From Spirochaetia bacterium (GTDB lineage: Bacteria > Spirochaetota > Spirochaetia > SZUA-6 > Bin103): DNA of 64,000 nucleotides. Both the position numbers and the translations under genes were made by a program. How positions within the stretch are numbered: position 1 is the first letter of the stretch; every line of letters starts with the position of its first letter. The stretch spans positions 3,264,001-3,328,000 of the forward strand of contig CBDBDQ010000005.1 in NCBI GenBank assembly GCA_965203905.1, written 5' to 3'. Shown here piece by piece: positions 9,810 through 54,910 of this stretch. Under the pieces are notes generated by a model that saw only the letters and a list, made by a program, of their open reading frames with translations, was not told the origin of the DNA and did no database searches.

Positions 9810-12596
9810 ATGGCCGCACGCCCCGGCAGAGCGAAGCGGCTCTATCTCATCGACGGTATGCCACTGGTGTACCGCGCCTACTTCGTGTTCCTGAACCGCC
9901 CCCTGATCACCGCCAACGGCTTCAATTCCTCGGCGGTGTATGGTTACACCACCTCGCTGCTGCAGATCCTCAACGACGAGCAGCCCACCCACTTGGCGGT
10001 GGTGTTCGACACCCCCGGTCCCACCTGGCGCGACCGCGAGTACGCCGACTACAAGGGCACGCGGGCGAAGGCGCCGGAGGACATCGGCGCCTCGCTGCCG
10101 CACGTGCGCCGGATCACCGAGGCGATGGGTCTGTCGGTGATCGCCCATGACGGGGTGGAGGCGGACGACGTGATCGGCACCCTGGCGGCGCGCGCGGAGG
10201 CGGCCGGCTTCGACACCTACATGGTGACGCTGGACAAGGACTTTGCACAGTTGGTCAGCGACCACGTGTTCCTCTACCGGGTGCCACGCATGGCGGGCGA
10301 TCCGCCGCAGGTCTACGACGTGGCCGGGGTGCGCGAGCGCTTCGGCGTGGAGCGGCCGGAGCAGGTGATCGACCTGATCGGGCTGGCCGGCGACAGCGTG
10401 GACAACATCCCGGGCGTGCCGGGGGTGGGGGAGAAGACCGCGCAGAAGCTGATCGCCCGGTTCGGCACGGTGGAGGCGCTGGTCGCCGGCACCGATCGAT
10501 TGAAAGGCAAGCAGCGCGAGAGGATCGAGACCCACGCCGCGCAGGCGCTGCTGTCGAAGCGCCTGGCCACCATCGACCGCGAGCTGGACCTGGAGCTGGA
10601 CCTGGAGCGGCTGGCGGTGCCGGCGCTGGATCCGCAGCGCGTCATTCCGCTGTTCCAGGAGTTCGAGTTCAGCACACTCGTCGAGCGCGTGTTCGGCGAA
10701 GGCGAGGGCGCGGCGGCGGCTGCGGCGCCCACCGGTGGTGGCGTCGAGGGCGCGGACCGGCTGCGCACGCTGGACGACGTTGCCCACGACTACCGTCTGG
10801 TGGAGGGAGCGCCGGCGCGGGCGGGGCTGGTCGAGGACCTGCTACAGCAGGAGGCGGTCAGCCTGTTCGCGGTGTGCGGCAGCGGTGACCCCAAGCGGGT
10901 GCCGCTGGCGGGCGTCGCATTCCGCTGGCAGGAGGGCGCCGCGGCCTATCTGCCGCTCTCCGAGGGGCGCGCCGCGGCTGCCGCCGAGCTGGGCGAGCTG
11001 GCGTCCTTCTGGGAACACCCGGAGATCGTCAAGGTCGGCCACGACCTGAAGCGCTGGGTCACGGCGCTGCGCTGGCACGGCATCGCCGTCCGCGGCCGGC
11101 TGCTGGACACGCGCCTGGCGCACCAGTTGGTGGAGTCGGAGGGGGCGCACGACCTGGCGCTGCTGGCCGAGCACTACCTGGGCTACGCGCCGATCGTGCC
11201 CGGTGAGGCAGCCGCCGCGCTGCTGAAGAGCCCGGCGCTGAACGCCGAGGAGCTCGCCGCGGCCGGTTTGCCTGCCGCCGAACTGGCGACCTACGCCGGT
11301 GAGCGCGCGGACGTAACCGCGCACCTGCTGGACGCCCTGCTGCAGGAGATCGACCGCTACGATGAGCGCGAGCTGTGGGAGCAGGTCGAGGTGCCGCTGA
11401 TGCCGCTGCTGGTGGATATGGAGCACACCGGAGTGGCGGTTCGCGTCGGCGCCCTGCGCGACTACTCGCTGGAGCTGGAGAAGGAGATCGCCGCCCACGA
11501 GGCGGATCTGTACCGCCTGGCCGGCGGCCCGTTCAACCTCAACTCGCCGAAGCAGCTCGGGGAGCTGCTGTTCGACCGCCTCAAGATCGCCGACAAGCCG
11601 AAGCGCACCCGTACCGGGCAGTACGTGACCACCGAGCAGGAGCTGACCCGGCTCGCCGACCGCCACGCGATCATCCCCGCCATGCTGGAGTACCGCGTGG
11701 TGCAGAAGCTGAAGTCGACCTACGTGGACGCGTTGCCCGACTCGGTGGTGGCGGAGACCGGGCGCATCCACACCACCTTCAACCAGCTGGTGGCCGCTAC
11801 CGGGCGGCTCAACTCCGAGAACCCCAACCTGCAGAACATTCCCATTCGCACCGACAAGGGGCGGGAGATCCGCCGCGCCTTCGTCGCCCCGGAGCCCGGC
11901 CAGGTGCTGCTGGCCGCCGACTACTCGCAGATCGAGCTGCGCATCATGGCGGCCATTACCGCGGACCCCGGGCTGGTGGAGGCGTTCGCCGACGACGTGG
12001 ACATCCACGCCGCCACCTCCGCCAAGGTGTTCGGCGTCCCGCTGCCGGAGGTGACCGCCGAGATGCGGCGGCGGGCGAAGATGATCAACTTCGGCCTGAT
12101 GTACGGCATGTCCGCCTTCGGTCTGGCGCAGCGCCTCAACATCGCCCGCGCCGAGGCGCGCGAGATCATCGAGCGCTACTTCGGGCAGTTCCCGAGGATC
12201 CAGCAGTACATGGGCGACACCGTGCTGTTCGCGCGCGACAACGGCTACGTCCAGACCCTGCGCGGCCGGCGCCGCTACCTGCGCGACATCCGCTCGCGCA
12301 ACCACGCCGCGCGCGCCGCCGCCGAGCGGGTGGCGATCAACGCCCCGATCCAGGGCAGCGCCGCCGACATGATCAAGATCGCTATGCTGGATATCGACCG
12401 CGAGCTGCGCGAGCGCGCTCTGGCGGCGCGGATGATCCTGCAGGTGCACGACGAACTGGTGTTCGAGGTGCCGCAGGCCGAGCTGCAGCCGGTGACGGAC
12501 CTGGTGACCCGCTCCATGCGCGATGCCCTCGACCTGGGCCGGGTGCCGGTGGTGGTGGAGGTGGGCACCGGCGCCGACTGGCTGGAGGCACACTGA
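9810..12596 (+). CDS. polA: DNA polymerase I
   Basis: LYLIDG, EADD, GDSVDNIPGVPGVGEKTA 5' nuclease; DYSQIELR, K.INFG..YG, QVHDELV polymerase motifs. Confidence 0.97.
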   Translation: MAARPGRAKRLYLIDGMPLVYRAYFVFLNRPLITANGFNSSAVYGYTTSLLQILNDEQPTHLAVVFDTPGPTWRDREYADYKGTRAKAPEDIGASLPHVRRITEAMGLSVIAHDGVEADDVIGTLAARAEAAGFDTYMVTLDKDFAQLVSDHVFLYRVPRMAGDPPQVYDVAGVRERFGVERPEQVIDLIGLAGDSVDNIPGVPGVGEKTAQKLIARFGTVEALVAGTDRLKGKQRERIETHAAQALLSKRLATIDRELDLELDLERLAVPALDPQRVIPLFQEFEFSTLVERVFGEGEGAAAAAAPTGGGVEGADRLRTLDDVAHDYRLVEGAPARAGLVEDLLQQEAVSLFAVCGSGDPKRVPLAGVAFRWQEGAAAYLPLSEGRAAAAAELGELASFWEHPEIVKVGHDLKRWVTALRWHGIAVRGRLLDTRLAHQLVESEGAHDLALLAEHYLGYAPIVPGEAAAALLKSPALNAEELAAAGLPAAELATYAGERADVTAHLLDALLQEIDRYDERELWEQVEVPLMPLLVDMEHTGVAVRVGALRDYSLELEKEIAAHEADLYRLAGGPFNLNSPKQLGELLFDRLKIADKPKRTRTGQYVTTEQELTRLADRHAIIPAMLEYRVVQKLKSTYVDALPDSVVAETGRIHTTFNQLVAATGRLNSENPNLQNIPIRTDKGREIRRAFVAPEPGQVLLAADYSQIELRIMAAITADPGLVEAFADDVDIHAATSAKVFGVPLPEVTAEMRRRAKMINFGLMYGMSAFGLAQRLNIARAEAREIIERYFGQFPRIQQYMGDTVLFARDNGYVQTLRGRRRYLRDIRSRNHAARAAAERVAINAPIQGSAADMIKIAMLDIDRELRERALAARMILQVHDELVFEVPQAELQPVTDLVTRSMRDALDLGRVPVVVEVGTGADWLEAH

Positions 12597-12840
12597 CCAA
12601 AGCCGAACGGCGCACCCTGAGCATATTTCGTGCTATCGTTGACCGATCACGTAGCTTGGACTCGATGGCGGTGGGACCTCTGGTAGATAACGACCTAGTG
12701 ACATTCCCCGGAACGATCGACTTACGTTCCAAGTGGCAACTACCGCGACCGGCCTTCGTTTCCGTGGTGCAAGACGAGACTTTGGCGACTCAATATAGCG
12801 GAACGATAGCCCAAGTACCCTTGAGACCTCATCTGATCCG

Positions 12841-14178
12841 TTGGATATGAATCCAAGTTCAATCGTGCTGGCCTCCCGCCAAGAAATACCCCGATACAGC
12901 GCCGACGAATCATGTGTACAGTTTAGAGACTGGACCGGTGGGCGTTCTGTATCTACTGTTGGAACCAACGCCGGTACTGATCTCTTACCGTTTCAGACAT
13001 GGCGCCGATTCAAGGAGGCGTTTGCTCCCGAACTCATTGAGAGGGCTGTGGCCGAGACACCCTCCCGAGTTCGACATATTGTTGATCCATTCGGTGGCTC
13101 TGGTACCACTGCCCTTGCTGCGCAGTTCCTCGGCACTCTTCCGACAACGATAGAGGTGAATCCCTACCTTGCTGATCTCATAGAGGCAAAATTGGCACCC
13201 ATCGATTTCAGCAGAGCTATCGAGCTATACCGACACATTGTTGAAGACGTAACTGAAAGTAGTATGGAATCTTCGCCAGTATTCAACGGCGCCCCCGCCA
13301 CCTTCGTCGAACCAGGAAAAGACGGTCGGTATGTCTTTTCGCAGGAAGTTGCTGGACGGATCCTGGCGTACCGAGCGGCTATTGAGAGAGTATCGGACCC
13401 CACGCACCGTAGACTCTTTCGTGTGGTGCTAGGGTCCACTGCTGTTCCCTCAAGCAATGTTGTTGTGAGCGGAAAAGGTCGCAGATACCGTATGGGTTGG
13501 AAAGAGCGTCGCCACTCGTCACATAGTGTAGACGATCTCTTTCGAAGTAAGCTGCTCCAAGCGCTGCATGACTTGCGTAAGTTCGCAGCTCGCCGATGCC
13601 TTCACTACCGCATCCTCCGTGGTGATGCGCGGGAACTTGCAGACCAGATTGGTCCCTACGACCTTGCTGTGTTCTCGCCTCCATATCCAAACTCATTCGA
13701 TTATACCGACGTATACAACGTAGAGCTATGGACGTTGGGATACCTCGACAGCGCCGGTGCGAACACGCGACTGCGTCACTCAACACTCAGTAGCCACGTC
13801 CAGCTAATCCGACGATTCGAACCAGGTTCGCTCCAGAGCCCAACCCTGAAGCGGACTCTAGACGCGCTTGCGGGCGTCCGAAACAAGCTATGGAGTCAGC
13901 ACATCCCGGAGATGATTGGTGCGTACGCCCACGATATGGAGATCGTGATGAGGAAGCTTGCGGGAGGAGTCCGTTCTCGCGGTCGGATCTACATCGTTGT
14001 AGGAGACAGCCGATATGCTGGCGTGGTCGTTCCGGCGAGTACTATAATATCGGAGATCGCACAGTCCATCGGTTTCAAGTTGGTCGGTTTAGAGTCGTGT
14101 CGGGCAATGCGAACGTCACCACAGCAGGGAGGAGAGTTTGATCTTGCAGAGACACTGCTTATCATGGAGTGGCCTTAG
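12841..14178 (+). CDS. Amino (probably N4-cytosine) DNA methyltransferase, alpha-type motif order
   Basis: Motif I DPFGGSGTT precedes motif IV SPPY(PNSFDY); start may be ATG 12847. Confidence 0.85.
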   Translation: MDMNPSSIVLASRQEIPRYSADESCVQFRDWTGGRSVSTVGTNAGTDLLPFQTWRRFKEAFAPELIERAVAETPSRVRHIVDPFGGSGTTALAAQFLGTLPTTIEVNPYLADLIEAKLAPIDFSRAIELYRHIVEDVTESSMESSPVFNGAPATFVEPGKDGRYVFSQEVAGRILAYRAAIERVSDPTHRRLFRVVLGSTAVPSSNVVVSGKGRRYRMGWKERRHSSHSVDDLFRSKLLQALHDLRKFAARRCLHYRILRGDARELADQIGPYDLAVFSPPYPNSFDYTDVYNVELWTLGYLDSAGANTRLRHSTLSSHVQLIRRFEPGSLQSPTLKRTLDALAGVRNKLWSQHIPEMIGAYAHDMEIVMRKLAGGVRSRGRIYIVVGDSRYAGVVVPASTIISEIAQSIGFKLVGLESCRAMRTSPQQGGEFDLAETLLIMEWP

Positions 14179-14197
14179 TAGAAGCGCGCCAAAGAGT

Positions 14198-15286
14198 TTA
14201 GATGCCGGTATAGCCCGAAGCTCTCGCTTCGCTCGCAGAGCCAAAGAGTGGTCGTATCTCCATTGAGGAGATTCCGCGATATTGGCGCAGGGCGTTTTTG
14301 ATGCTGGATGAGCGAAACAGATCGAGGCGTTTTTCTTTGCGAAGATCATAAATTTCGATTAGTGCCTCGGCAGCGCGACGGTTAGCGCGGTACGCCGAAG
14401 CTTGTTTGATGCCGTCCGTAATGGCGCTTTCATTGGTGCTTTGACTTACGGTTGATGGATTGGATGGGCGGTGTGAAGTCGTGAATGATTTAATTACCTT
14501 TAGTTCTATAATAGCCCAGTACTGCAACGGACCGCTTCCGACGGCGCTGAGCAAACGAACGTCTATTCTTCCGATATTCGTTGTGTCTTCGACTTCTGCT
14601 CGTAAGTTGCCATGGAACCATGAGCTGAGAGCCGTCTGTAGACTCAACTGGATGCTTTTTTCGGGTCTTTCCGCCGGAATGTATCGATTCCCATAGCGCG
14701 GTTTCCACACGCCGTCCGGGCAACACGAAGGCGTGAGGAGTCTTTGAATGTGAAAGTGGCGAAGTGCTTTCAAGAGCTCGGAAAGAGAGGCTGCGGGTTC
14801 GTAGTCGCGAATCGGGTCGTTCCTTGCGGCGTCTCGTGTTCCTGCAAGCCGTGTCACCATAGTCATTGTGTTTCGATAAACGATCACGACGGGAGAGCTG
14901 GTGAGGGACGCATCGTCGAGCCATTCAAGAATCCCGGTCTGGTCGGTTGGCAGGGGCATTGAGCGGCCGGCAGATGCATCGCAGTTGGTGAAGAAGAGTT
15001 GGCCAAGTAAGGGGGTTGCTGTTGCGAGAGGATCTGCGAAGGGTTTGGCTCCGTGGCGTTGTCCCACTTCGCGCGGGTAAGAGACCATCACAAAAACGGC
15101 AACGTCCTGCTCGCCTTCGTTCGGCCACCCCTGACGTGCTCGTTTTTCCACAAGAGATAGGATTGCTTGTGCGAACCGATCAGGAACCACGCCCTGTATA
15201 TTCGGTAGACTGGGAATAAGACTAGCAATAGCAGCGATGTCATTTTCGGCTACACCAGGTATTTGCGAAGTAGCGTCACGCGGCAT
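14198..15286 (-). CDS. Hypothetical protein with C-terminal PD-(D/E)xK nuclease-like domain
   Basis: E..GRIDVRL...IIELKV...KQASAY (D, ExK, QxxxY pattern). Confidence 0.6.
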   Translation of the reverse strand: MPRDATSQIPGVAENDIAAIASLIPSLPNIQGVVPDRFAQAILSLVEKRARQGWPNEGEQDVAVFVMVSYPREVGQRHGAKPFADPLATATPLLGQLFFTNCDASAGRSMPLPTDQTGILEWLDDASLTSSPVVIVYRNTMTMVTRLAGTRDAARNDPIRDYEPAASLSELLKALRHFHIQRLLTPSCCPDGVWKPRYGNRYIPAERPEKSIQLSLQTALSSWFHGNLRAEVEDTTNIGRIDVRLLSAVGSGPLQYWAIIELKVIKSFTTSHRPSNPSTVSQSTNESAITDGIKQASAYRANRRAAEALIEIYDLRKEKRLDLFRSSSIKNALRQYRGISSMEIRPLFGSASEARASGYTGI

Positions 15287-15986
15287 GCATCAATCGTCCG
15301 AGATAGGATGCGTACAAATATAGTCTTTCGCCGGGCGAAAGGTTAGACTCGCCGGGAAGGAACGCACGGAAGCGTTCGGTGACTTGCCAACTACCATTCG
15401 CCTCATGATGATCAGTAGCCCATGCACCAAAGTCGACCACACTGTGCAGCTCTCCAGTGGATCGGTATGTGACGTCCTGACTCGCCGCCACGTCAATCTC
15501 TTCGTCTGGTAGGGACGCTAGCGCACGGGCGAGTTCAACGAGAAACTCATGAAATCTAACGTCCACTTTATCGAGAGCATCCTCTGGTCCTTGGGCGCCG
15601 AGTTTCTTCAACAACCCTTGAAGGTGCTTCGACCCAAAATCCAATGCATAGTATCCGATAGTCCGTGCACCGTACTCACCACGGCGAACAAAACGTACAT
15701 CGCTGATCTGAACAAGCCCAACAGCGACTAGATGGTCAAGTTCTGCTTGCAGATCAGGATAGTATGGCCCGCCCTCGGACCGATATATCTTCCCATCGAA
15801 CGGTACAAGATCCCAAACAGGACTGAGGACGTCCGAAAGATAAGCGTACGCATGAAGCCGGGGGGAGCTGAGTGGGGTTATAGCGGCGCGCTCGGCTGCC
15901 TCAAGCAGTAAGAGCAGCCGGCAACGTTGCTTCGTCTTTAACAGGAATTGATCGTATAGCTCTTCTTCAGTGTAGCTATCAGTCAT
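15276..15986 (-). CDS. Hypothetical winged-helix-like protein (possible ABC-3C middle-component/kleisin-like partner)
   Basis: GPYYPDLQAELDHLVAVGLV resembles a wHTH recognition helix and wing; TGATG coupling to the ATPase and overlap with the nuclease start. Confidence 0.55.
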   Translation of the reverse strand: MTDSYTEEELYDQFLLKTKQRCRLLLLLEAAERAAITPLSSPRLHAYAYLSDVLSPVWDLVPFDGKIYRSEGGPYYPDLQAELDHLVAVGLVQISDVRFVRRGEYGARTIGYYALDFGSKHLQGLLKKLGAQGPEDALDKVDVRFHEFLVELARALASLPDEEIDVAASQDVTYRSTGELHSVVDFGAWATDHHEANGSWQVTERFRAFLPGESNLSPGERLYLYASYLGRLMHAA

Positions 15987-18001
15987 CAATTCACACCTAA
16001 AAGTGCGCTGTCGAGTAGTTCTCGGTAACGTTCACCGTCTTGCTGCAATGCAAGATTCGGAGCGGCTATCTGCATAAGATCTAGAACATGATCTAGCCTC
16101 ATAGCTGTGTCTCTTTGCGGAGCAGGTCCACCAAATAGCTCCGAAATAATCCCCATATTTGTGAGGTTACTTGTTAGGATTAGGCGGTTATTTCCTTGTG
16201 CCGAGAAATCATGAAGTGTTCTACCAATTCGCTCCATCGACACAGGGTCCAAACTTGCCTCTGGAGTCTCCATCACAAATGTGCTCGTCCCAAAAAACAC
16301 TTGCATTAGCGCTAGACGAAATGCGAGATCGATGATTTCACGCTGTGACTCCGACACTTCGTTCGGATCGATTCGTCGAACGAACCCGGGACGATCGGCG
16401 GCCTCCATCTCGGCGACAAATGCTGGCACTTCGATGCGGTCATGGCCGGGTGCCTGAAGATACCGAGGCTCCCGCTTGACTTGCGCAAGCCGAATGTTCT
16501 CTACAAGAAGAGTACGCGCTACATCCTGGAATGCAGTCAACAGCAAGTTCGACCTCTCCAAAATCGCACTTTGCCTATCACGGAGAAGGCTCTCGAGCTG
16601 CCGGAAGCGAGCAGCACGAGTTGCCTGCCAGCGACGAAGCTGAGTCTCCAGTGCACTTAGAGTCCCTTCGTACTCTCTAACGCTCCCTTCCGGCGCCAGT
16701 CTTGCTCTAAGCCGCCTCGCGGTACTCTCTCTATCCCGGAATGACTGCCGGACCTGCGACAGTGCATCGAGAGTGCTCTCATATTCGTGGACGCTACCAC
16801 GTAGCCGTCGTGACCTCGTTTCCTCCTCACGGTACGCACGCTCCACACGTTCTCGCGCACGCTCCAAATTTGCCTGTTCGAATACGTGCGACGGAATCAC
16901 CGCATCATGCTCTTTTGGATCAGCGCCACACACGGGACAATTCCCGCGTTCGATCCGGCTCTCAAGTTCCAATTGTGTTTCTTCCGCATCAGAGCTACAA
17001 ACTAAGCAGCGCCCATCTGTCATAATCCGGGAGAGGACGAGACGAGCGACTTCGTCCATACTTGGGAAGTATCGAGACAATGCGGTATACTTGAGCCGTT
17101 CGACCGCACCTACCGCTTCTTCGCGTTCGATTTTCGCTCGTTCAAGCTCAAGTCGTGCGTTTTTCCGCTCGGTGTCATGCTCATCAAGGAGAGCTTCAAG
17201 TCGGTTCGCTTCGATGATCTCTGCATCGAGGACCGCTTGCTCAGCCTCGAGTTGAGCGAGCAATCCAACGGTCTCGGCCTCCCGTTGTTTGAGTTCTGTC
17301 AAGTCCCGCTCGGTTGCACGTAGCCGTGCGTGTACGTTGCGTGCTTGGCTGTCTGCACTCTGCAGGAGCCTCTCTAGTTCTGCGACCTCTGAAGCAGCTT
17401 CTTTGGGAAGACAGAGTGTGCGAAGCAATTGTCGTTGAGCGTTAGTATCCCAAAGCGCTCCCGGGCGATTCTCGAGGAACAGTACGATGTGATGGAGGAC
17501 AAGCAAGACATCTACGAAATCTCCGAGTCCAAATAGCTCGGTGAGTTTGGTCTGAATCAGCTCTTCACGTCCCGCTTTGGAAGTTGGTATGTCGAGTAGA
17601 TTCCCATCAATACAGAGCGCCGTCAACGATAGGTTGTCGAGTCTTCTGGAAATCGTGATCTGTGTGTCGCCTATCGTTGCTGACAGCGATGCTTGGGCGT
17701 TTACGGCACCGTCGGCGACGCGATCGGCGAAGAACCTAGCTTGTTTCCGTCGAAGTGAGACGGGTGATCTCGGAAGGACGACATCGAGGGTCGCTGGCAT
17801 ACCATCGCTGGTGAGGTCGTAGGGACCGGTCAAGCACCGTAGGATCATAGTGATCAGCGTGGTCTTTCCAAGACCGTTGATGCCAGCGATCAGGGTGAGG
17901 CCGTTTGGGAACTGCCAACGGATCCCGCTGCCGCGGGGATGGCCGGGGAACAAGCGATAGTCGGTGACTTCCAACCGTGTGAAGATCGGTAGGTGGACCA
18001 T
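15986..18001 (-). CDS. SMC/Rad50-like ABC ATPase with coiled coils and central CxxC pair
   Basis: Walker A GINGLGKTT; heptad-rich arms; CLVC and CPVC; signature VSESQRE; Walker B/D-loop FVMETPEASLD. Confidence 0.85.
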   Translation of the reverse strand: MVHLPIFTRLEVTDYRLFPGHPRGSGIRWQFPNGLTLIAGINGLGKTTLITMILRCLTGPYDLTSDGMPATLDVVLPRSPVSLRRKQARFFADRVADGAVNAQASLSATIGDTQITISRRLDNLSLTALCIDGNLLDIPTSKAGREELIQTKLTELFGLGDFVDVLLVLHHIVLFLENRPGALWDTNAQRQLLRTLCLPKEAASEVAELERLLQSADSQARNVHARLRATERDLTELKQREAETVGLLAQLEAEQAVLDAEIIEANRLEALLDEHDTERKNARLELERAKIEREEAVGAVERLKYTALSRYFPSMDEVARLVLSRIMTDGRCLVCSSDAEETQLELESRIERGNCPVCGADPKEHDAVIPSHVFEQANLERARERVERAYREEETRSRRLRGSVHEYESTLDALSQVRQSFRDRESTARRLRARLAPEGSVREYEGTLSALETQLRRWQATRAARFRQLESLLRDRQSAILERSNLLLTAFQDVARTLLVENIRLAQVKREPRYLQAPGHDRIEVPAFVAEMEAADRPGFVRRIDPNEVSESQREIIDLAFRLALMQVFFGTSTFVMETPEASLDPVSMERIGRTLHDFSAQGNNRLILTSNLTNMGIISELFGGPAPQRDTAMRLDHVLDLMQIAAPNLALQQDGERYRELLDSALLGVN

Positions 18002-18568
18002 TCAGTCTTGTCGGGGGTCGGTTGAACGACGTTGGCCTAGGACCTGCCAGGTATGCTGGCGGCGGGTCCCGAAGCACAACCGCTGGCGGGCACCTCGTTG
18101 GATGGTGCAATTTGCAGTCATTTTCCTCTCCGCTAGTGCTCATAAGATAGCAAGTATCGACATACGCCACTACTAGGGGCGGTGCTGTAGAACATTGACA
18201 AGCTGATTCGGGCTGCTGCTTCAGAGTGCTCGCGTGGTGATTCCGAAAATCTGCGACGAGCTACGTAACTTGCTACGCAGTAGTGGAATAGTAGCACACG
18301 GCTCGAAGTTTCGCAGCTATCGGTTAAGTTGAAGGGTGACGCGACCGTGCGCGTCCGGTTGCCTCGTTTCATTAGCTCTCAGCGGCCGCGCACGTAGTCG
18401 AACTCCAGTTCGTCTCTTCTCTTCGAACCCGCTTCGTTGTGGTTGCGATACGCGGTAGATCGAGCGGGCAGTGGCGAAGGCACGACAAACCGGCAGCACC
18501 GGACGTATGGCGATGCACTGTACTCGCACACCTCAAGGCACAGAGACTGGCCTTCAACGCTCAACCAG

Positions 18569-19672
18569 CTACGTGTGGCGACGAACTTGCGCCTCCTGGC
18601 GCAGCAGGTGGTCGGCCAGCACCAGGTTGAACATGGCATCCGCCAGCGGCACGGCGCGCGGCAACACGCACGGGTCGTGGCGGCCGCGCGGCTTCAGGGT
18701 GATCTCGTTGCCCGCCTCGTCGACGGTCTGCTGCGGGCGCAGGATCGTGGCCGTGGGCTTGAAGGCGGCGCGCACCACGATCGCCTCGCCGTTGGAGATT
18801 CCGCCCTGCACGCCCCCGGAGCGGTTGCTGCGGGTGCGCACCCGCGCACCGTCGGGATGGTCACGGTCCAGGTAGAACAGGTCGTTGTGGGTGCTGCCGG
18901 TCATCCGCGTGCCGGCGAAGCCGGAGCCGATCTCGAACCCGCGGCAGGCGGGCAGCGACAGCAGCGCCTTCGCCAGGTCGGCGTCGAGCTTGTCGAACAC
19001 CGGCTCGCCGAGTCCGGGCGGAATGCCGCGCGCCACCGCCTCCACCACGCCGCCGAGCGAGTCGCCCGCCTTGCGCGCCCGCTCGATGCGTTCCTGGATA
19101 GCTGCCGCCGCGGCCGGATCGGGGCAGCGGGTGATGTGCGCCTCTACCGCGTCGCGGGTGACGCGGTCCGGGTCGACCTCGGCATCCACGTCGCTCACCT
19201 GCTTGACGTAGGACACGACCTCGGCGCCGCAGTTCAGGCGCAGCACCTTGGCGGCGATGGCGCCGGCCGCCACCCGCCCCACGGTTTCGCGGGCGCTGGC
19301 CCGGCCGCCGCCGCGCCAGTCGCGGCGACCGTACTTGGCGGAGTAGGTGTAGTCGGCGTGGGAGGGACGGAAGGCGGTGCGCATCTCGTCGTAGTCGCGG
19401 GAGCGCGCATCCTGGTTGCGCACCAGGATGTGAATCGCGGTGCCGGTGGTGCAGCCCTCGAATACTCCCGACAGGATCTCGGCGCGGTCCGCTTCCGCGC
19501 GCTGGGTGGTGATGCGGCTCTGGCCGGGCCGGCGGCGGTCGAGCTCGGCCTGCAGATCGGCCTCGTCCAGCGGCACTCCGGGCGGACAGCCGTCCACCAC
19601 GACGCCCACCGCGGGGCCGTGGGACTCGCCCCAGGTGGTGATGCGGAACAGGTGACCGAAGCTGCTTCCCAT
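18569..19672 (-). CDS. aroC: Chorismate synthase
   Basis: [41 protein letters not shown]. Confidence 0.97.
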
Positions 19673-19680
19673 GGCCGCTC

Positions 19681-20943
19681 CTAACCGGTCGCCGGGGCTG
19701 CCGCGGCCGCCCCGGCGGCGCGGAACGGGTGCCGCGGATCGGCGGCCTCGGAGAACGCAGCGCCATTCACAACTGGCAAGGAGAGTGCCGCATGCTGTCC
19801 GTCGAGCGGGTTCGGCTCGCGCCACAGGTGGCCGTCCCAGGTGCGCACCACCACCTCGTCGCCGGCGCGCCCCAGGAGGTACTGCGGCGCTAGCGGCACC
19901 TTGCCGTAGGGAGTGTCCAGCACGTAGGTGGGCACGCCGAAGCCGGTGAGGTGGCCGCGCAGCCCCCGCATGACCTCCAGTCCACGCTCGATGGTGGTGC
20001 GCAGGTGGGAGGTGCCGGCGAGCAGTTGGCATTGGAAGACGTAGTAGGGCCGCACGCGCATGCGCAGCAGCCCGTGGATCAGGGCCCGCATCACGCCCAC
20101 GTCGTCGTTCACGCCCTTGAGCAGCACCGTCTGGTTGCCGAGCGGGATCCCCGCCGCAAGCAGCAGGTCGCACGCCCGCGCCGCCTCCGGGGTGAGCTCG
20201 CGCGGGTGGTTGAAGTGGGTGTTGAGCCACAGCGGGTGGTGGCGCGCGAGGATGCGGCACAGCTCGGGGGTGATGCGCTGCGGCAGGGTGCACGGCGTGC
20301 GGGTGCCGAAACGGATTATCTCGACGTGGTCGATGGCGCGCAGCCGGCCCAGCAGATCGTCCAGGCGTTCGTCGGAGAACAGGAACGGGTCGCCGCCGGT
20401 GACCAGCACGTCGCGGATGGCCGGGGTGCGGGCGATGTAGTCGATGCCCTGCTGCAGCTTGGCGCGCGTGTGATGCTCGTCATGATTGCCGACGAAGTAC
20501 TCGCGAAAGCAGTAGCGGCAGTAGGTGGGGCAGACGTTGGTGATCTTGAAGGCGACGCGGTCGGGGTACACGTGGACCACGGCGTCCACCGGCGAGTTGT
20601 CCAGTTCGGCCAGCGGGTCGGGCAGCCCCAGGTCGTCGTGCAGCTCCTGAACCGAGGGCACCTGCTGCAGCCGCAACGGGCAGGCGGGATCGGCGCGATC
20701 CATGAGGCTGGCGTAGTAGGGCGTGATGCTCCAGCGATACTGCGCCCCGGCGGCGCGAATCTGCGCCCGCTCGGCCTCGCTCAGACGCAGGTAGCGGCCC
20801 AACTCCTCCACCGTGGAGATGCGCTCTCGCATCTGCCAGCGCCAGTCGTCCCACTGCGCCGCGGTCGGCCGCTCGGTCGCTGTCGTGCCGGGCTCGCGCG
20901 GTTCTGCCGGCACCGCCGCCGAGTCCGCACGGGATCGCTGCAT
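19681..20943 (-). CDS. KamA family radical SAM aminomutase (lysine 2,3-aminomutase-like)
   Basis: [50 protein letters not shown] lysine. Confidence 0.9.
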
Positions 20944-21137
20944 CGCTCCCCCCTCGCCGCAAATATAGCACGCCACCGTCCCGCGGTGACGCCGGGTGGC
21001 TATCAAAAGACGGCGCAAACTGACAAACTGCCGGAGTTCGGGCCCACGCGCACGCCACACCCTCAGCGCGTCGCGAGGAAGGCTGTGGTCGATACCGCAC
21101 CCGCGCCGGATCGACGACCATATTGCGGAGACTGAAG

Positions 21138-21459: not shown

Positions 21460-22041
21460 GTGCTCGAACAACGGCTGCGCTTCCTGCTGGAGGCCGACAA
21501 GCTGAAGCAGGTGCTGCGACGCAACGTGATCCTCGGCAAGCAGCGCCGGGAAAATTCCGCCGAGCACTCCTGGCACCTGACGCTGATGGCCCTGGTGCTG
21601 GTCGACCACGCCGCCGTCCGCGACCTGGACCTGCTGCGGGTCCTGAAGATGCTGGTGGTGCACGACCTGGTGGAGATCGACGCCGGCGACACCTTCGCCT
21701 ACGACGAGGCGGCCAGGCGGGATCAGCAGGAGCGCGAGGAACGCGCCGCCGAGCGCATCTTCGCGCTGCTGCCGGCGGAGCAGGCGGCCGAGATGCGCGA
21801 CCTGTGGGACGAGTTCGAAGCGTCGCAAAGCCCGGAGGCACAGTTCGCCCTGGCCCTGGACCGCTTGCAGCCGATGCTCCTCAACTACTTCAACGGCGGT
21901 CCGGGCTGGCAGGAGCACCGCGTGACGGCGCGCCAGGTGCGGGCCGTCAACGCCTGCATGGAACGCGGCTCCCCGGAGCTGTGGAACTACGCGCGCGGAT
22001 TGGTCGACGACGCCGTCGAGCGCGGCTTCCTCGCGCCATGA
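21460..22041 (+). CDS. HD-domain phosphohydrolase (YfbR/HD_3-like)
   Basis: ENSAEHSWH, HDLVEIDAGD, EF, ALDRLQP. Confidence 0.9.
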   Translation: MLEQRLRFLLEADKLKQVLRRNVILGKQRRENSAEHSWHLTLMALVLVDHAAVRDLDLLRVLKMLVVHDLVEIDAGDTFAYDEAARRDQQEREERAAERIFALLPAEQAAEMRDLWDEFEASQSPEAQFALALDRLQPMLLNYFNGGPGWQEHRVTARQVRAVNACMERGSPELWNYARGLVDDAVERGFLAP

Positions 22042-22044
22042 GAA

Positions 22045-22360
22045 GAAACCCTTGAACTCGCCGCCGTTATCCGAATGGACCGCCAACAGCTCGAAGGGGA
22101 GCAGGTGGCGCACCACCAGGAGTTGCTGGAACGCCCATTTTCTGAACCTTGTTGTGCGCCGCGCGGAACTCCGTCGACTGGGTGCGGCGGTCCGTGGCCA
22201 TAGCGTGTAAACATTGTGTAAACAAACTCACCGGTCGTGGCCCCGCCGTCGTCGCCGACCAGATCAAGACCCAGGGTGCCGAGCGCGACATCCTCCCACT
22301 CGCTGAAGGTGCGGATCGGGATATGCAGCATCAGGCTGCCGGTGGGCCGCTTCATATGAG
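22045..22360 (-). pseudogene. Degraded DDE integrase-core transposase remnant
   Basis: Fragments IPIRTFSEW..LGLDLVGDDGGATTGEFVYT and LPFELLAVHSDNGGEF in different frames. Confidence 0.7.
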
Positions 22361-22500
22361 GTGCGCAGCAGCCGATCGATGGTAGCTGCGCTGATGCAAC
22401 TCCAGCTTGGCGCGCAACTCGGGGGGTTGAGCGCGATCTTGCGCCTGCTGCGTACATCGCAACGCTCGTAGTTCGGTCATCGCCCTGACGATGTGAATTT

Positions 22501-23033
22501 TTTCATCAATTTGTTGTAGAGAAAATATTTAGTGGCGCCGGTTTCCACAGTGTGCCTAGGAGAAACGTTCCATCGCGAAATGGCGAAACTTGTAGATTCG
22601 CGAACTTTCCGCCAATTCGCGACTTCGCCAGAGGAATTCGGTGCTTGGGCGAGGATTTCGGATCAACCCTGATCCTCGCCCCACATGTTGAATCTTTGCA
22701 CAAACCTTTGTAGGGCATCGATTTGTGTTCCCAAGGTTCTATAGACTAGATGACACTCCATCAGTCCGTTCGCGAAATGGCGGATCTCTTGTGGGTTTCG
22801 CGAACTGACACGCCAATTCGTGAATTTGACCGGATTGGTCCCTATCTCATTGCCATAGGATGCTACTGTTTCACCAATTTGTTGTAGATAGACGATTTAA
22901 TAGCGCCGGTTCTACAGTATGCACAGAAGGCCGATCCGTCGCGAATTGGCGAACTTGCAGATTTCGAGAAACCCGTCGCCGATTCGCGACTTCGCGAGAG
23001 AAAATTCGCTGCTTAGGCGAAGTCTGGGGTCAA
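22501..23033. repeat. Imperfect direct repeat of about 165 bp (22501-22666, 22869-23033) plus a third partial copy (about 22766-22828), each with an inverted-repeat core
   Basis: Shared TTTCAyCAATTTGTTGTAGA, GCGCCGGTT, TCGCGAAwTGGCG...CGCCrATTCGyGA, TGCTTrGGCGA. Confidence 0.8.
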
Positions 23034-33529: not shown

Positions 33530-36500
33530 GTGCTGAGTGACTCGGGGATTTACCGGAACGCACTCCAGGTCTCGCCGACCCGCATCGCGGCTCTGGACGA
33601 TACCGACTTGAACGAACTCATGGGCCAGTTGTTGCGAGCCCAGACCTACCGTTGCGGTTCCCCGCGCGATCTCGTGAACACGGAGATCAGAGCATCAGAC
33701 GCCGGCTGCGATGGCTGGACTGAGCGTCCTGCGACGGCGGATCCCTGGCTCGGTTCCACAGATACGTGTTGGCAGTTCAAGTCGGGGAGGGCCGGGGAGC
33801 CCGGTCGGCTGGGCCCTGAGGTGGAAAAGCCAACACCGCTCCGAACGTTGCGTGGCGGCGGGCGGTTCGTGGTCGTTGCAAGTGGTTCGACAAGGGGGAC
33901 GGCGGGCGTCGACGAACGACGGGCACAACTGACCACTGCCGCCAGACAACTCGGGCTGCCCGAGGAAGCTGACGAGAGAATAGTTGTCTACGGCAGTGAA
34001 GAAGTCGCCAAGTGGTGCAACCAGCATCCTGCCATTGCGGCGCGCTGGGCGGGACGGCCGCCGGGGCTGCTGACGTGGGACGAGTGGGCGGGCAGTAGTG
34101 AACATCGGATGCACTATGAAGCCTCCGCGGAAGTGCAGGCAATCCTGACGGAAGGAAGAGCCGATCTGGACTTCGCCACGGGCAGTGTCCATCATCTGCA
34201 TGTCCAGGGTCCGCCGGGTGTTGGAAAGACACGATTCGCACTCGAGCTCTGTCGCGAAGCACCGTGGCGAGATACGGTGGTCTATTTTGCGCAGAGCGAG
34301 GATCACCGCTTGCTCGAATTGATCGACAGTGTGGCGCAAGAGGCAGATCCCGCGGTTCGATTGATGGTCGTCGCGGACGAGGCACAGCCGGAGCATCTTT
34401 TGCCGTTCCGGAACTCGGTGGAACGTGCGAACGGTCGGGTCCGGCTCGTCACCGTGGGTGGTTGTTGGACTCCCGACCCACAGAGAATACCGGAACTGCG
34501 GATCGAACCGCTTGACGCAGCGATGATGCGGCCCGTGGTCCGCAACTGGTATCCGGCAATGCCGCCGGAGCACGTTGACTACGTAATACGCCTCGCGGAC
34601 GGTTACCTGCGGTTGGCACGGCTCGTCGCGAATGTGGTTGACGCCGATCGCGAGGCAACCGTACCGGAAGTGCTGCACCGTACGGAAGTCCGTCAGCTTC
34701 TCGACCGCATGCTCGGGAGGGGGGACCGGCGACCGCTGCATGTCGTCGCGATTCTGTCTCACGTAGGCTGGGATGATGACCGGCGCGCCGAGGGAGAAGC
34801 GATCGCCGCGTACATGGGGCTCGACTGGAGTCAAGTGCGCCATGCCGTCAACGATTTCCATCGTCGCATGCAGATTGCTCCGCGCGGTGGACGCTATCGA
34901 TATATCTCACCGGAGCCGCTCGGGATATATCTTGCTCTCGAAGCGCTGGACGTCAATCCTGAAATGCTGGAGGCGCTGCCTGCGAGGTTGCCCTCGGAGC
35001 CGGCAAGAGATGCGTTCTATCAGCGTATGCAGGCGATCTCCAGCAATCCAGGAACGCGAGAGTACTCACGCGAAAAGCTGCGCTTTTTTTTTCGGATCGA
35101 TGATTTCGTAGATCCTCAGCGAGTGCGTCGATGGTCGGCGTTCTCCGCGTCGGACCCGGAGGCAGCCGCGGCCAACATAGGTCGCGCCCTGCAGGCGGCC
35201 GGTGTCGAGGAACGCAGGAGGATCAGAGGCGAAGCAAGGCGTGAGATCGTCTGGAGACTGGTTCGCATCGCGTGGCGCTCATCCGCATTTCACGACGCGG
35301 TTACGGCGCTGGCGCTGCTGGCCGAGGCGGAGAACGAGCCCTGGGCGAATAATGCCACCGGCGAGTTCGTGGCGCGTTTCCAGGTAGTTCTGGGCGGCAC
35401 CGGGCTTCCCTACCTCCGCCGTCTGCACGTGATCGATGAATTGCTGGAGTTGGGGAGGCCTGAGTTGGCGAGGCTCTGCATAAGAGCCTTGTCCCGGGTC
35501 GGAGGAGGATCCGAGACTCGCGGTGGAATCGTCCCCCCGTCCGACCAGGTGCCGGAGAGGGAGTGGCAGCCCGAGACGGGAAGCGAGCGCCTGGAGTGTA
35601 TCCGCAACGCTGTCGCCAGATTGGAATCCGTTGCCACACTTCGGCTCCCCGCCCTGCAAGCCGACTTGGTGAGGGCTGCGGGTGGTCTGTCTTTGCTCCT
35701 TCGCTATCGCAAGACGCGCACGATGGTCGCGAGATTCCTCGTAGCCGTACGCGTAGCCTACCCCGGTGCTCGGGAGCCACTGAGGCAAGTCGTAGCCGGC
35801 GTCATGCACCTGTACATGGAGGATCTTCCACCCGATCAACAGCGAGAGCTTGCCGAGCTGCATGCAGAATTCGAAGACAGTGCGCTAGGGGCGCGGCTGG
35901 AGCAGCACGTCGGGGCGCGACCATGGGAGCGGATTCTGCCTCCCGAGTTCGCGTCACTCGCTGCGGAGCTTCTTGCCGCTCCCACCGTGCTGGAGGAGTA
36001 CTGGCCCTGGTTGACTTCGGGCGACGCCGCGTCCGCATGGGAGTTCGGTGTGTCTCTGGCCAAGGTAGACCAGAGAGGCCGCTTTCTCAGTGCACTGCCG
36101 ACATTCGCTGACACTGGGTCAGACCTGCGTATGGTATGCGGGTACGTCGCCGCGCGACGGGAGGCTCTTGGCGACGAGTGGTACGAACAGTGGGTGTCGT
36201 CTCAGTTCGACCGTGATCCGCAGCCGGTAAGGCTCATACACGAAGCTATCTGGCGTTGTGGCGTGACTGATCGGATAGCCGGCATGATGGCGGGAATGCT
36301 GCGGGAGCAACAAGTCAGCTCGCTGATCGTGGGACAGGTCGCCTACGCCGACTGGCGCGGTACATCAGCCAGCGTGCTTGAAAGCGTATTGCGAGTGATG
36401 GCGGATACAGGCCACGCCGAGACCGCGTTCAGTATCCTTCAGCGCCGCATGGAGCAGGCTCCCGTCGAGATGGAGTGTTGGAAGCCGTTCGCCGTGGAGT

Positions 36501-37174
36501 TGGTAACGAGCGTTGACCTGATCCGCTGCGGCGGGACAGCCAGCGACCGCTGGAAGGAAGTCGCAGTCGCTCTTGTCGAGGATCACTTCGAGAAGATAGC
36601 CACGGCTATTTTTCGGGCTCATGCAAGTCGCAAACCGACCGAGAGCTGGTTCATAGACACTGAATCAGCCGCTGCCGAGGTGCTTGTTTCTTGTGTCAAG
36701 CAGGATCCCGGCCGGATCTGGAAGACTTTGCTCTGCTTCCTCTCGCCACCTGGCGAAGCATACCTGTTTGCGTCCGGTTTCCCGACAGAGGTGATGGATC
36801 TGCTGCCCGTGGATGACATACTAACTTGGATCGGGGAGTTGCCCCGTGAGAAGGCCGCAGAACGTGTGGCTGCACTGGCCCGTATGAGCAACATGGACTC
36901 GCTGAATGACGATACGCTGGCTGCACGTCTCATCGGCAAGTATGGGGACAATGAGATTGTGGCCGAGGGTTTCTTTGCTCGTTACGTCTCGGGCAGTTGG
37001 TGGGGGCCAGCCTCTTCACACTGGAGCGCTCGTGCTGAGGCACTAAAAAAAGTGGCCGAGCGTAGCGTACTTCCCAGACTGCGCGACTGGGCGTCAGCGA
37101 CCGCTCGGACTATCGATGAGATGGCCGCGCAGGAAGAGCAGCGGGAAGAGGAACGACAGCTCCTGATTCGTTGA
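33530..37174 (+). CDS. Large STAND-like P-loop NTPase with N-terminal restriction-endonuclease-like domain and helical C-terminus (Avs-like)
   Basis: DAGCDG...WQFKSG; Walker A GPPGVGKT; Walker B LMVVADE; ADGY GxP-like position; long alpha-helical tail; composition shift relative to neighbours. Confidence 0.72.
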   Translation: MLSDSGIYRNALQVSPTRIAALDDTDLNELMGQLLRAQTYRCGSPRDLVNTEIRASDAGCDGWTERPATADPWLGSTDTCWQFKSGRAGEPGRLGPEVEKPTPLRTLRGGGRFVVVASGSTRGTAGVDERRAQLTTAARQLGLPEEADERIVVYGSEEVAKWCNQHPAIAARWAGRPPGLLTWDEWAGSSEHRMHYEASAEVQAILTEGRADLDFATGSVHHLHVQGPPGVGKTRFALELCREAPWRDTVVYFAQSEDHRLLELIDSVAQEADPAVRLMVVADEAQPEHLLPFRNSVERANGRVRLVTVGGCWTPDPQRIPELRIEPLDAAMMRPVVRNWYPAMPPEHVDYVIRLADGYLRLARLVANVVDADREATVPEVLHRTEVRQLLDRMLGRGDRRPLHVVAILSHVGWDDDRRAEGEAIAAYMGLDWSQVRHAVNDFHRRMQIAPRGGRYRYISPEPLGIYLALEALDVNPEMLEALPARLPSEPARDAFYQRMQAISSNPGTREYSREKLRFFFRIDDFVDPQRVRRWSAFSASDPEAAAANIGRALQAAGVEERRRIRGEARREIVWRLVRIAWRSSAFHDAVTALALLAEAENEPWANNATGEFVARFQVVLGGTGLPYLRRLHVIDELLELGRPELARLCIRALSRVGGGSETRGGIVPPSDQVPEREWQPETGSERLECIRNAVARLESVATLRLPALQADLVRAAGGLSLLLRYRKTRTMVARFLVAVRVAYPGAREPLRQVVAGVMHLYMEDLPPDQQRELAELHAEFEDSALGARLEQHVGARPWERILPPEFASLAAELLAAPTVLEEYWPWLTSGDAASAWEFGVSLAKVDQRGRFLSALPTFADTGSDLRMVCGYVAARREALGDEWYEQWVSSQFDRDPQPVRLIHEAIWRCGVTDRIAGMMAGMLREQQVSSLIVGQVAYADWRGTSASVLESVLRVMADTGHAETAFSILQRRMEQAPVEMECWKPFAVELVTSVDLIRCGGTASDRWKEVAVALVEDHFEKIATAIFRAHASRKPTESWFIDTESAAAEVLVSCVKQDPGRIWKTLLCFLSPPGEAYLFASGFPTEVMDLLPVDDILTWIGELPREKAAERVAALARMSNMDSLNDDTLAARLIGKYGDNEIVAEGFFARYVSGSWWGPASSHWSARAEALKKVAERSVLPRLRDWASATARTIDEMAAQEEQREEERQLLIR

Positions 37175-53940: not shown

Positions 53941-54789
53941 TCACAGGACGGACTCGTCGCGTTCTGCGTTTCGATTTTGTAGCGCACTCAGAAACTCGTT
54001 TCGCACTGATTCCTTTTCTCTCGAATCCAAGTCATGTTTAAGTGCCGACTGAGACATCCTCAGAAGGCGTGCGTCAATCTCATACGGTCGTTGTCCCGTA
54101 GACTCTATTTGATCGATCAGAGCTTCGATATCACTATGGGGAATCTCGCCGGCAACCATTTGTGCAACTTCACGCAAGCTCGATGGTATGTTCCTAGGCA
54201 CATACGGTCCCATCAGAGGTGCTTCTCGTCGCCCCTCTTGTTGTAGGGACGCCCTTGGGTGGCATTTCAAGAAGACGCTGAGGTCATCGGACTCCCATTC
54301 ATGGAGAGAGTCAGCCTCCTGGCGCAGGAATTGCGATTGACTTGACCGGGCGGGTTTGATGCCAAGAAGATGGACTCTAGCTCCGTACTCTTGCGCCTGT
54401 TGGACTCCCACTCTGATATCTTCGTCTCCGGAAAGGAGCACGCATTCCGCCATTGCTCCGTTCCGAGCCAATGTGATCATGTCCGTTACGACAAGAGAGT
54501 CTACGCCCTTCTGCTGTCCATATGAATTCACGAATCCCAGACGCACCTTCATGTACCCTTTTTCAGCCAGAGCAATATGTTGTGTGCTTGGCCCCTGAGA
54601 CGTACCATCGTACCAATATATTCGGAATAAGGGAAGCTGCGAAACTTTCTCCGAAAAAGTTTTTAGCGAACAAATTACACCATCATAGTCTAGGTTAATC
54701 TCTCCGCGTTGTAACTTACTGCCGGACAGCGCCCTTGAACCCTCTGCGAAGAGGTAACCAGCGTCAACAAATACTGCTACTCGATCCAT
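53941..54789 (-). CDS. NYN/LabA domain PIN-fold RNase with C-terminal helical domain
   Basis: VFVDAGY, YWYD, QQKGVD, LSGDED; AT-richer than the flanks. Confidence 0.88.
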   Translation of the reverse strand: MDRVAVFVDAGYLFAEGSRALSGSKLQRGEINLDYDGVICSLKTFSEKVSQLPLFRIYWYDGTSQGPSTQHIALAEKGYMKVRLGFVNSYGQQKGVDSLVVTDMITLARNGAMAECVLLSGDEDIRVGVQQAQEYGARVHLLGIKPARSSQSQFLRQEADSLHEWESDDLSVFLKCHPRASLQQEGRREAPLMGPYVPRNIPSSLREVAQMVAGEIPHSDIEALIDQIESTGQRPYEIDARLLRMSQSALKHDLDSREKESVRNEFLSALQNRNAERDESVL

Positions 54790-54845
54790 TTGTTTCCGTC
54801 CCGAGGAACCCAGACATCTTGCATCTGAAACATAGGGATAGATAG

Positions 54846-54867
54846 AAAAAGGCCCCCGCAGGGGCCT
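54846..54867 (-). terminator. Rho-independent terminator upstream of the NYN gene
   Basis: Minus strand AGGCCCC-TGCG-GGGGCCT followed by TTTTCT. Confidence 0.75.
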
Positions 54868-54910
54868 GCTAGATACACCAACCCATTCAATAATAATCGG
54901 GTCGGTATAT
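54846..54910 (-). ncRNA. Putative ~65-nt two-hairpin leader/small RNA
   Basis: 12-bp stem AUAUACCGACCC/GGGUUGGUGUAU (two G-U pairs, fully paired only on the minus strand) followed by the terminator, directly after a promoter. Confidence 0.5.

Follow-up and report, generated by a model that had tools for sequence, protein, structure and literature searches.

The described systems closest to the locus reported here are Lamassu (DdmABC, ABC-3C; LmuA-LmuC-LmuB) and type II restriction–modification (R-M). Lamassu loci place the effector gene first, and we know of no ATP-dependent restriction enzyme with an SMC-like ATP-binding cassette (ABC) ATPase as its motor, the known ones using helicase-like, AAA+ or GTPase motors. 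The locus is a four-gene cassette in a 64,000-nucleotide stretch of a Spirochaetia bacterium genome (GenBank assembly GCA_965203905.1, contig CBDBDQ010000005.1, positions 3,264,001 to 3,328,000 of the forward strand), called the window below; all positions are those of the window unless a locus is named. It encodes an SMC/Rad50-like ABC ATPase, a small middle protein, a PD-(D/E)xK nuclease and a DNA methyltransferase (methylase). Comparison with known systems suggests, with a probability of roughly 0.6, that the cassette is a methylation-gated, Lamassu-related restriction system. The cassette is undescribed in the searchable literature.

In the solved LmuACB complex, LmuB bears a zinc hook. 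LmuC makes two sets of contacts there, one with LmuA's non-catalytic domain and one with the coiled coils of two LmuB protomers close to the zinc hook (10.1101/2025.03.14.643221). The Lamassu family includes PDDEXK and Mrr effectors, and all of its tested systems act by abortive infection (10.1101/2022.05.11.491447).

Four linked genes

The original observation, an island carrying four genes, was confirmed. A sequence-only reading of the window had described three overlapping minus-strand genes separated by 19 bp from a facing methylase gene, and the open reading frames (ORFs) are exactly so arranged (Table 1). The ATPase and middle genes overlap by 4 bp and the middle and nuclease genes by 11 bp, and the stop codons of the convergent nuclease and methylase genes are 19 bp apart (14179-14197). 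The motifs named in that reading (SPPY of an alpha-type methylase and D..ExK..QxxxY) are present in the translations, as are those of an ABC ATPase. The cassette is compact, with four genes in 5.2 kb.

Table 1. Cassette genes and surrounding features, in window coordinates
Feature	Position	Strand	Size	Remarks
DNA methyltransferase	12841..14178	+	445 aa	from TTG
Two-domain nuclease	14198..15286	-	362 aa	N-terminal docking domain (predicted) ~1-165; C-terminal PD-(D/E)xK domain ~165-350
Middle/adaptor protein	15276..15989	-	237 aa	N-terminal winged-helix domain and C-terminal helices
SMC/Rad50-like ABC ATPase	15986..18001	-	671 aa	LmuB-like
Horizontally acquired island	12599..18585	.	5,987 bp	in the polA-aroC intergenic spacer
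Non-coding leader of the ATPase operon	18002..18585	-	584 bp	presumed promoter region
ORF of 39 codons	18121-18002	-	39 codons	GGAGAGG ribosome-binding-like site; stops exactly at the ATPase start codon

Full-length homologues number in the hundreds for each of the four proteins, and the motifs are nearly invariant among them. All of the homologues seen in the source databases are named 'hypothetical protein'. Gene linkage was followed in two sets of loci. The first was anchored on the ATPase by a pattern scan with one genome per species, which gave 18 loci in Alpha- and Gammaproteobacteria, Bryobacterales, Myxococcota and Cytophagales. Named isolates among them are Qipengyuania benthica DY56-A-20, Mesorhizobium sp. 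B2-4-3, Sphingosinicella sp. YJ22 and Ancylobacter sp. sgz301288. Every locus with enough flanking sequence (17/17) kept the order ATPase, middle and nuclease gene followed by a convergent methylase gene; the eighteenth lies on a contig of 3.3 kb whose end falls within the nuclease gene.

The second set was anchored on the methylase and comprised the best 80 (47-64% identity) of 390 relatives on metagenome contigs, which were scored with profile hidden Markov models of the four alignments. All four genes were found in 52 of the 58 assessable loci; in 48 of these the arrangement is convergent, and in 4 the trio lies upstream in divergent orientation. Ten further loci end too early yet show the expected next gene or genes, and 12 are uninformative. 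Six of the 80 are incomplete, with the ATPase kept in three (L064, L096 and L099), so that an ATPase gene stands beside the methylase in 55 of the 58. The sequence-only reading had itself named methylase co-occurrence across homologous loci as one of its tests; since the methylase accompanies nearly all homologues of the trio, this test does not refute it.

Clustering of all ORFs from the ATPase-anchored loci and the window yielded no fifth common gene. Judging by the member names printed, the remaining large clusters consist of alternative-frame ORFs within the cassette. In related loci the genes likewise overlap at their junctions, and the 3' ends of the convergent pair touch or overlap. The four genes make up a single, strictly linked cassette that moves horizontally and is widespread in soil and marine bacteria.

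Rates of divergence were compared in the 46 loci with four full-length genes. Median pairwise identity was highest for the methylase (0.51, with a minimum of 0.46), followed by the middle protein (0.34), the ATPase (0.30) and the nuclease (0.25); the last three proteins diverge to 15-25% identity. The four identity matrices correlate, with r of 0.74-0.91, a descriptive figure only because related loci are not independent. The cassette is thus inherited as a block, with the methylase as its slowest-evolving part. The conservation of catalytic residues detailed below suggests purifying selection on activity.

The ATPase

The ATPase has a Walker A motif GINGLGKTT at residues 40-48, an ABC signature VSESQRE at 549-555, a D-loop SLD and a Q-loop. 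A coiled-coil insert of about 300 residues carries two CxxC pairs near its middle (C332/C335 and C355/C358), which would form a zinc-hook-like apex. K46, the four cysteines and S550/S552 are kept in 47 of 47 sequences and Q553 in 46 of 47.

The libraries scanned were PADLOC-DB 2.0, Pfam and NCBIfam release 20.0. In PADLOC the ATPase matched LmuB (PDLC03859) with an E of 5.4e-18, and LmuB was the best family in all 22 relatives; by this assignment, with K46 and the cysteines invariant, the protein is LmuB-like. Weaker PADLOC matches were to mad3, PbeC, DndD, AriA and PtuA. Pfam SMC_N gave 31.3 bits, below its cut-off of 40.

NCBIfam returned only faint SMC and Rad50 matches, and the nearest solved ATPase heads by sequence are those of Rad50 (E 0.01-0.03). 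Both observations would suit a mobile module for DNA repair or chromosome handling, in which a Rad50/SbcC-like ATPase works with a nuclease, the methylase is incidental and defence plays no part. We consider this very improbable. The cassette has no Mre11- or SbcD-type phosphoesterase, and its nuclease has a restriction-enzyme-like fold. Moreover, the distribution is patchy, with horizontal transfer across at least five phyla-level groups; the cassette was not found in 60 of 60 relatives, occupies a low-GC insert and, in distant relatives, adjoins transposon genes.

The nuclease, the adaptor and their predicted contact

The catalytic motif of the nuclease consists of D242, E261-L-K263 and Q295...Y299. 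E261 and Q295 are kept in 58 of 58 sequences, and D242 and K263 in 57 each. Pfam PDDEXK_9 matched all 40 relatives scanned, with a best E of 1.7e-5; the window protein itself scored an E of 0.001, under the gathering score. No informative solved relative was found on searching the PDB with the sequence profile. An AlphaFold2 (AF2) model of the nuclease (pLDDT, the predicted local distance difference test, 89) was compared with solved structures by VIA-align, in which a Z below 8 can mean a mere common arrangement. Residues ~165-350 aligned with CdiA-CT (4g6u, Z 8.4), BstYI (7.7), OkrAI (7.3), BsaWI (7.2), BamHI (7.0) and BglII (6.9), and restriction enzymes or defence nucleases make up most of the 50 rows listed. 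The restriction fold is assigned because these rows agree and the D...ExK motif is invariant.

This fold bears on the earlier statement that no conventional restriction endonuclease is present, which is now doubtful: the C-terminal domain of the 362-residue protein is itself like those of type II enzymes (BstYI, OkrAI, BamHI and BglII, Z 6.9-7.7), and the protein may therefore be a restriction enzyme in its own right.

Residues ~30-224 of the nuclease align weakly to diadenylate-cyclase domains (DisA 3c1y, Z 6.7; MsDisA 7y0d, Z 6.7; CdaM, Z 6.1). This likeness of the N-terminal domain to DisA/CdaA-type domains appears to be one of fold arrangement only, no DGA or RHR-like motifs being seen by eye. 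Leads from a protein atlas for the nuclease (PDDEXK_9 and DUF8371) scored below 0.9 or concerned a minority of cluster members and were not used.

For the middle gene the ATG at 15986, which gives 236 residues, is the likelier start, because most of the homologues listed are about that long. The window protein has no Pfam, NCBIfam or PADLOC match. Its AF2 model (pLDDT 84) has a winged-helix fold, in line with the winged helix-turn-helix (wHTH) character first proposed for it. The best VIA-align row is a chain of Mycobacterium tuberculosis DarTG (7yk3_D, Z 10.1, 152 residues aligned). Two LmuC chains also aligned: 9ny5_C (Z 7.0, root-mean-square deviation (rmsd) 3.6, 136/171 residues) and 9hqx_d (Z 6.5, rmsd 3.9, 130/164 residues).

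The PADLOC LmuC model matched 6 of 52 middle-protein relatives weakly (best E 0.0023), and a search of the PDB with the middle-protein profile found no LmuC by sequence. The PADLOC LmuC family PDLC03869 was absent from all 301 genomes of the window's phylum and likewise from all 14 control genomes, which makes that scan uninformative. The LmuC-likeness of the model is best taken as a lead at the level of fold. An antitoxin-like 'neutraliser' fold, as the model may indicate, would fit a role in sequestering the nuclease.

At E <= 0.001 the middle-protein family counts 324 cluster representatives among 1.84 billion, a small number. In the protein atlas all of the nearest clusters are named 'hypothetical protein'. 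An atlas lead to SocA_Panacea was below a score of 0.9 or concerned a minority of cluster members and was not used.

Complex prediction for the middle protein and the nuclease gave ipSAE values of 0.86, 0.86 and 0.85, against 0.01, 0.00 and 0.00 for controls. A mark of 0.86 was reached by 58 of 80 solved complexes and by 2 of 110 mismatched pairs, a calibration that is rough here since our own alignments were supplied. At least 83% of the contacts are common to the three runs, and the pLDDT of the partners is at least 86. The predicted interface joins nuclease residues 7-31, 69-73, 100-108 and 231-256 with residues 33-39 and 199-233 of the middle protein. The models support binding of the middle protein to the nuclease.

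The nuclease fold also raises the alternative of an ordinary type II R-M pair, with which a separate ATPase/adaptor module, for example an independent Lamassu remnant or an anti-anti-restriction guard, would travel without controlling the nuclease. The cassette resembles a type II system in having a methylase with the S-adenosylmethionine-binding motif I and the catalytic motif IV, encoded tail to tail with a PD-(D/E)xK nuclease whose C-terminal domain is like BstYI, OkrAI, BamHI and BglII. A fast-evolving nuclease beside a conserved methylase is a type II habit too, and one related locus, described below, retains both genes despite a disrupted middle gene.

Nevertheless, we consider a plain type II pair unlikely. 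In every locus the genes for the ATPase, the middle protein and the nuclease form one operon and overlap, and all four genes occur together in 17/17 and 52/58 assessable loci of the two sets, so that the nuclease is co-inherited with an SMC-like ATPase and an adaptor. It has in addition an extra N-terminal domain of ~165 residues that is predicted to bind the middle protein (0.86 versus 0.01 for the control). Except for L063, in which the nuclease is partial, no methylase–nuclease pair was seen that lacked remnants of the ATPase arm. Judged by linkage and predicted binding, the nuclease would not be a restriction endonuclease that acts without an ATPase.

The methylase

The methylase has motif I (DPFGGSGTT) at residues 82-90 and motif IV (SPPY) at 279-282, with about 190 residues between them. 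Motif I ahead of motif IV is the order of the alpha class. Together, these two motifs point to an enzyme that targets an exocyclic amino group (N4 of cytosine or N6 of adenine); SPPY is commoner in N4-cytosine than in N6-adenine enzymes. The protein matched PADLOC MTase_II (PDLC03224) with an E of 3e-41 and Pfam N6_N4_Mtase with 28.3 bits, above the gathering cut-off of 26.7. SPPY is kept in 80 of 80 relatives and D-x-F-G-x-G in 79-80 of 80. No informative solved relative was found in the PDB by sequence. Translation more likely starts at the ATG at 12847.

Among viral contigs the best methylase-like match had 27% identity, and ATPase, middle or nuclease matches were found in none of 80 viral loci; the cassette was thus not found on viral contigs with the methylase as query. 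A distant methylase relative, also with 27% identity, lies in a different operon at 5034-11268 of L189 (NZ_MN657145.1, the Cryobacterium plasmid pA28BH1). That operon also encodes a second methylase, an AAA family ATPase and two hypothetical proteins, and it adjoins TniQ and TniB.

The methylase need not be a self-marker if the system acts by Lamassu-type abortive infection. The freed nuclease would then cut host and phage DNA alike, and the methylase might stabilise the island as an addiction or antidote element, act as a regulator, or modify DNA or another substrate during infection. Such a mode would agree with the LmuB-like ATPase, with the abortive action of tested family members and with the PDDEXK and Mrr effectors known among them (10.1101/2022.05.11.491447). 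A near-constant methylase across divergent nuclease arms also fits a role that is not site-matched to the nuclease. Even so, this mode appears improbable to us: a conserved methylase clade (SPPY in 80/80), which lies by the ATPase in 55/58 loci, is most simply understood as protection from the co-encoded nuclease, and the available parts of the Lamassu literature compared make no mention of a methylase.

Comparison with described systems

The three-protein arm of the cassette, like Lamassu, combines a small middle protein and a two-domain nuclease with an SMC/Rad50-like ABC ATPase whose coiled-coil apex carries cysteines, and the middle protein is predicted to sit on the non-catalytic domain of the nuclease as LmuC does on C-LmuA. 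The cassette differs from Lamassu in its gene order, ATPase-middle-nuclease and not effector first, in the small share of middle proteins (6/52) that match LmuC, all of them weakly, and in the small size of the middle-protein family. Lamassu is marked by abortive infection that DNA ends or palindromes trigger, and it has no modification component. The cassette also differs in having a dedicated methylase in nearly every locus; the Lamassu-family papers compared (including 10.1101/2022.05.11.491447 and 10.1101/2025.03.14.643221) do not mention one in the parts available.

Several observations weigh against a methylation-gated, Lamassu-related restriction system. Some concern the ATPase and the kinship with Lamassu. 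The LmuB match is weak for its length (63.5 bits on a 611-position model), and the ATPase profile found no solved LmuB in the PDB, Rad50 heads being the best hits. The Walker B region (residues 574-585) is non-canonical: its acidic residue is D in 25 and E in 22 of 47 sequences and is followed by T, G or A where a catalytic glutamate usually stands; an invariant P-E comes next (E581 in 47/47), and E581 may take over catalysis or hydrolysis may be slow. None of 40 nuclease relatives matched any PADLOC LmuA model at E <= 1. The domain order is also reversed, with the catalytic domain C-terminal and the docking domain N-terminal in the cassette and, in LmuA, the effector domain N-terminal and a sequestered oligomerisation domain C-terminal. 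The Z of 6.5-7.0 between the middle protein and LmuC may reflect a common arrangement only; generic wHTH regulators score alike (Z 5.5-7.5) and the DarTG chain scores higher. Foldseek against the PDB returned nothing at E <= 0.001 for either the middle or the nuclease model.

Other observations concern the coupling of the parts. Three of the 58 assessable methylase loci (L057, L063 and L079) have no ATPase. The nuclease falls to 18-25% identity where the methylase holds at least 46%, which would be odd if the nuclease alone read the methylase's motif; recognition may lie elsewhere. Finally, in an alphaproteobacterial metagenome-assembled genome (L003) an insertion sequence (IS) of ~1.6 kb at 12327-13943, with a DDE transposase (Pfam DDE_Tnp_1, E 1.8e-18, and DUF772), interrupts the middle gene. 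In this natural adaptor knockout the other three genes are full length, and adaptor loss thus appears to be tolerated, at least for a while, with the nuclease present.

Three further groups of systems share features with the cassette. MADS combines self-marking by methylation with an ABC-ATPase–nuclease module, and weak PADLOC matches to mad2 (7.8e-6) and mad3 (8.1e-8) were obtained. It is an operon of eight genes (mad1-mad8) that includes kinases, two ATPase modules, a MAD3/MAD4 pair and a MAD7/MAD8 pair; MAD3/MAD4 are an OLD-like ATPase and a Toprim nuclease and have no long coiled coil (PMC13662399). Identity with MADS was rejected: the cassette has four genes and a PD-(D/E)xK nuclease, and neither its middle protein nor its nuclease matched a mad family.

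CxC-ABC/PbeABCD systems, from the Aravind laboratory, have a zinc-hook coiled-coil ABC ATPase, and the cassette ATPase shows weak PbeC and DndD matches. Some CxC-ABC neighbourhoods link to cytosine-5 or N4 methylases and a nuclease, and what defines these systems is a DndE partner carrying two ribbon-helix-helix domains, a fusion of an HKD nuclease with a superfamily 2 (SF2) helicase, and a small disordered protein (PMC10853773). These defining genes are absent from the cassette, whose ATPase partner is a wHTH protein and whose nuclease is of the PD-(D/E)xK type, and identity was rejected here too. As a family for the ATPase, LmuB far outscores PbeC (5e-18 versus 1.8e-8 at best).

The BREX-related MANTIS (Gao_RL), BREX and DISARM are likewise multi-gene systems in which an ATPase accompanies a self-marking methylase and a restricting nuclease; MANTIS has an ORC/Cdc6-type AAA+ ATPase, DUF3870 and a fusion of a phospholipase D (PLD) nuclease with an SF2 helicase (10.64898/2026.09.23.753747). 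No homology to MANTIS components was seen in the PADLOC scan, and identity with MANTIS/BREX was rejected.

Hma was not among the best 25 of 37 and of 44 PADLOC families listed for cassette proteins; that system includes a helicase, and the cassette has none. No model of the three libraries names the nuclease, the middle protein or the cassette as a whole. The trio, set out by the sequence-only reading as a candidate undescribed system, is thus matched in full by no described one; in PADLOC only its ATPase matches LmuB, and the nuclease and middle protein have no model. Full-text searches of the literature turned up no methylase-linked LmuB-like cassette, though an ABC ATPase classification or the supplementary tables of Lamassu loci could list the family; Krishnan et al. 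reportedly gave such a classification in 2020 and defined ABC-3C there. In its working the cassette would be most like Lamassu joined to type II R-M.

Genomic setting and variants

The AT-richer island of the sequence-only reading is evident in base composition: GC content is 0.53-0.55 over 13001-18000 and 0.70-0.73 in the flanks (10001-12000 and 19001-21000). Upstream lie the housekeeping genes for leucyl-tRNA synthetase and DNA polymerase I (polA), and downstream those for chorismate synthase (aroC) and a lysine-2,3-aminomutase-like radical-SAM enzyme. In five of five same-genus genomes compared by blastn, polA and aroC are neighbours with spacers of 53-779 bp, and homology to the window breaks at 12594-12598 and returns at 18585-18588; the insert is therefore delimited as in Table 1. 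A full-length ATPase homologue was found in none of the 60 related genomes searched, one of which gave a match of 95 residues only (E 7.8e-4).

The island contains no tRNA and no integrase-like ORF in the ORF list, no Rfam match and no convincing flanking or terminal repeats. A sigma-70 consensus scan found no site in the leader of the ATPase operon, and promoter and terminator consensus scans of the non-coding parts of the island did no better than on shuffled sequence. The 39-codon ORF in the leader was considered as a gene and rejected; it is probably not one because it has no counterpart upstream of the ATPase in the 18 related loci. Elsewhere in the window, where background GC content is about 0.70, low-GC patches at 54001-55000 (0.51), 22001-23000 (0.56) and 36001-37000 (0.60) may be other acquired segments.

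Two distant relatives adjoin TniQ/TniB/TniA transposon genes. On a 3.2-Mb replicon of Burkholderia stagnalis (L023, NZ_CP156686.1, 5695-15812), one methylase of 47% identity lies between two complete trios, one of them co-directional and downstream of the methylase and the other divergent, and TniQ, TniQ and TniB adjoin. On an Azospirillum brasilense replicon (L022, NZ_CP059450.1, 5770-13126), two ORFs share the ATPase between them, and after the middle gene comes a 300-residue ORF that matches no profile. The methylase of this locus (45% identical) has a KAP-family NTPase directly downstream, and TniQ, a Mu-type transposase and TniB lie upstream.

Proposed mechanism and significance

The following scheme would account for a methylation-gated restriction system. 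The methylase would methylate a motif in host DNA at an exocyclic amino group and thereby mark self. The restriction arm would consist of the LmuB-like ATPase, joined through the winged-helix middle protein to the predicted N-terminal docking domain of the nuclease. By analogy with solved LmuACB, the ATPase might dimerise through its zinc-binding coiled-coil apex and keep the nuclease inactive. ATP-dependent engagement of foreign DNA, at ends or at unmodified sites, would free or position the nuclease to cut. With host sites methylated, the cut would land on unmethylated incoming DNA and not on the chromosome, and a Lamassu-style abortive response would be turned into targeted restriction.

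The sequence-only reading had proposed a hybrid in which the methylase marks self DNA and the SMC complex licenses cutting of unmethylated or end-bearing DNA; as a whole, that interpretation is partly supported. The chances are about even that the cassette represents a new class of R-M system, in which an SMC/Rad50-like complex would be the ATP-dependent restriction arm and a dedicated methylase the epigenetic self-marker. The methylase, with at least 46% identity, would then be the conserved core of the system. It may also supply the SMC complex with target recognition, a part that the methylase plays in BREX-like and MANTIS systems.

R-M systems use methylation, with motors other than SMC-like ones. 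Lamassu and Wadjet, both of them SMC-based immune systems, recognise the shape or the ends of DNA, and the available parts of the literature describe no epigenetic self-marker for them. A cassette that joins both would be a natural experiment in how SMC-like sensors are made safe for the host and in how ATP-driven DNA handling is coupled to the reading of methylation, and cloning and testing it should be easy. Should the methylase prove specific for N4-cytosine or N6-adenine with a defined motif, the cassette might provide a new ATP-gated restriction activity. If the proposed mechanism is true, an abortive Lamassu-type sensor would be convertible into a non-suicidal immunity that discriminates self from non-self.

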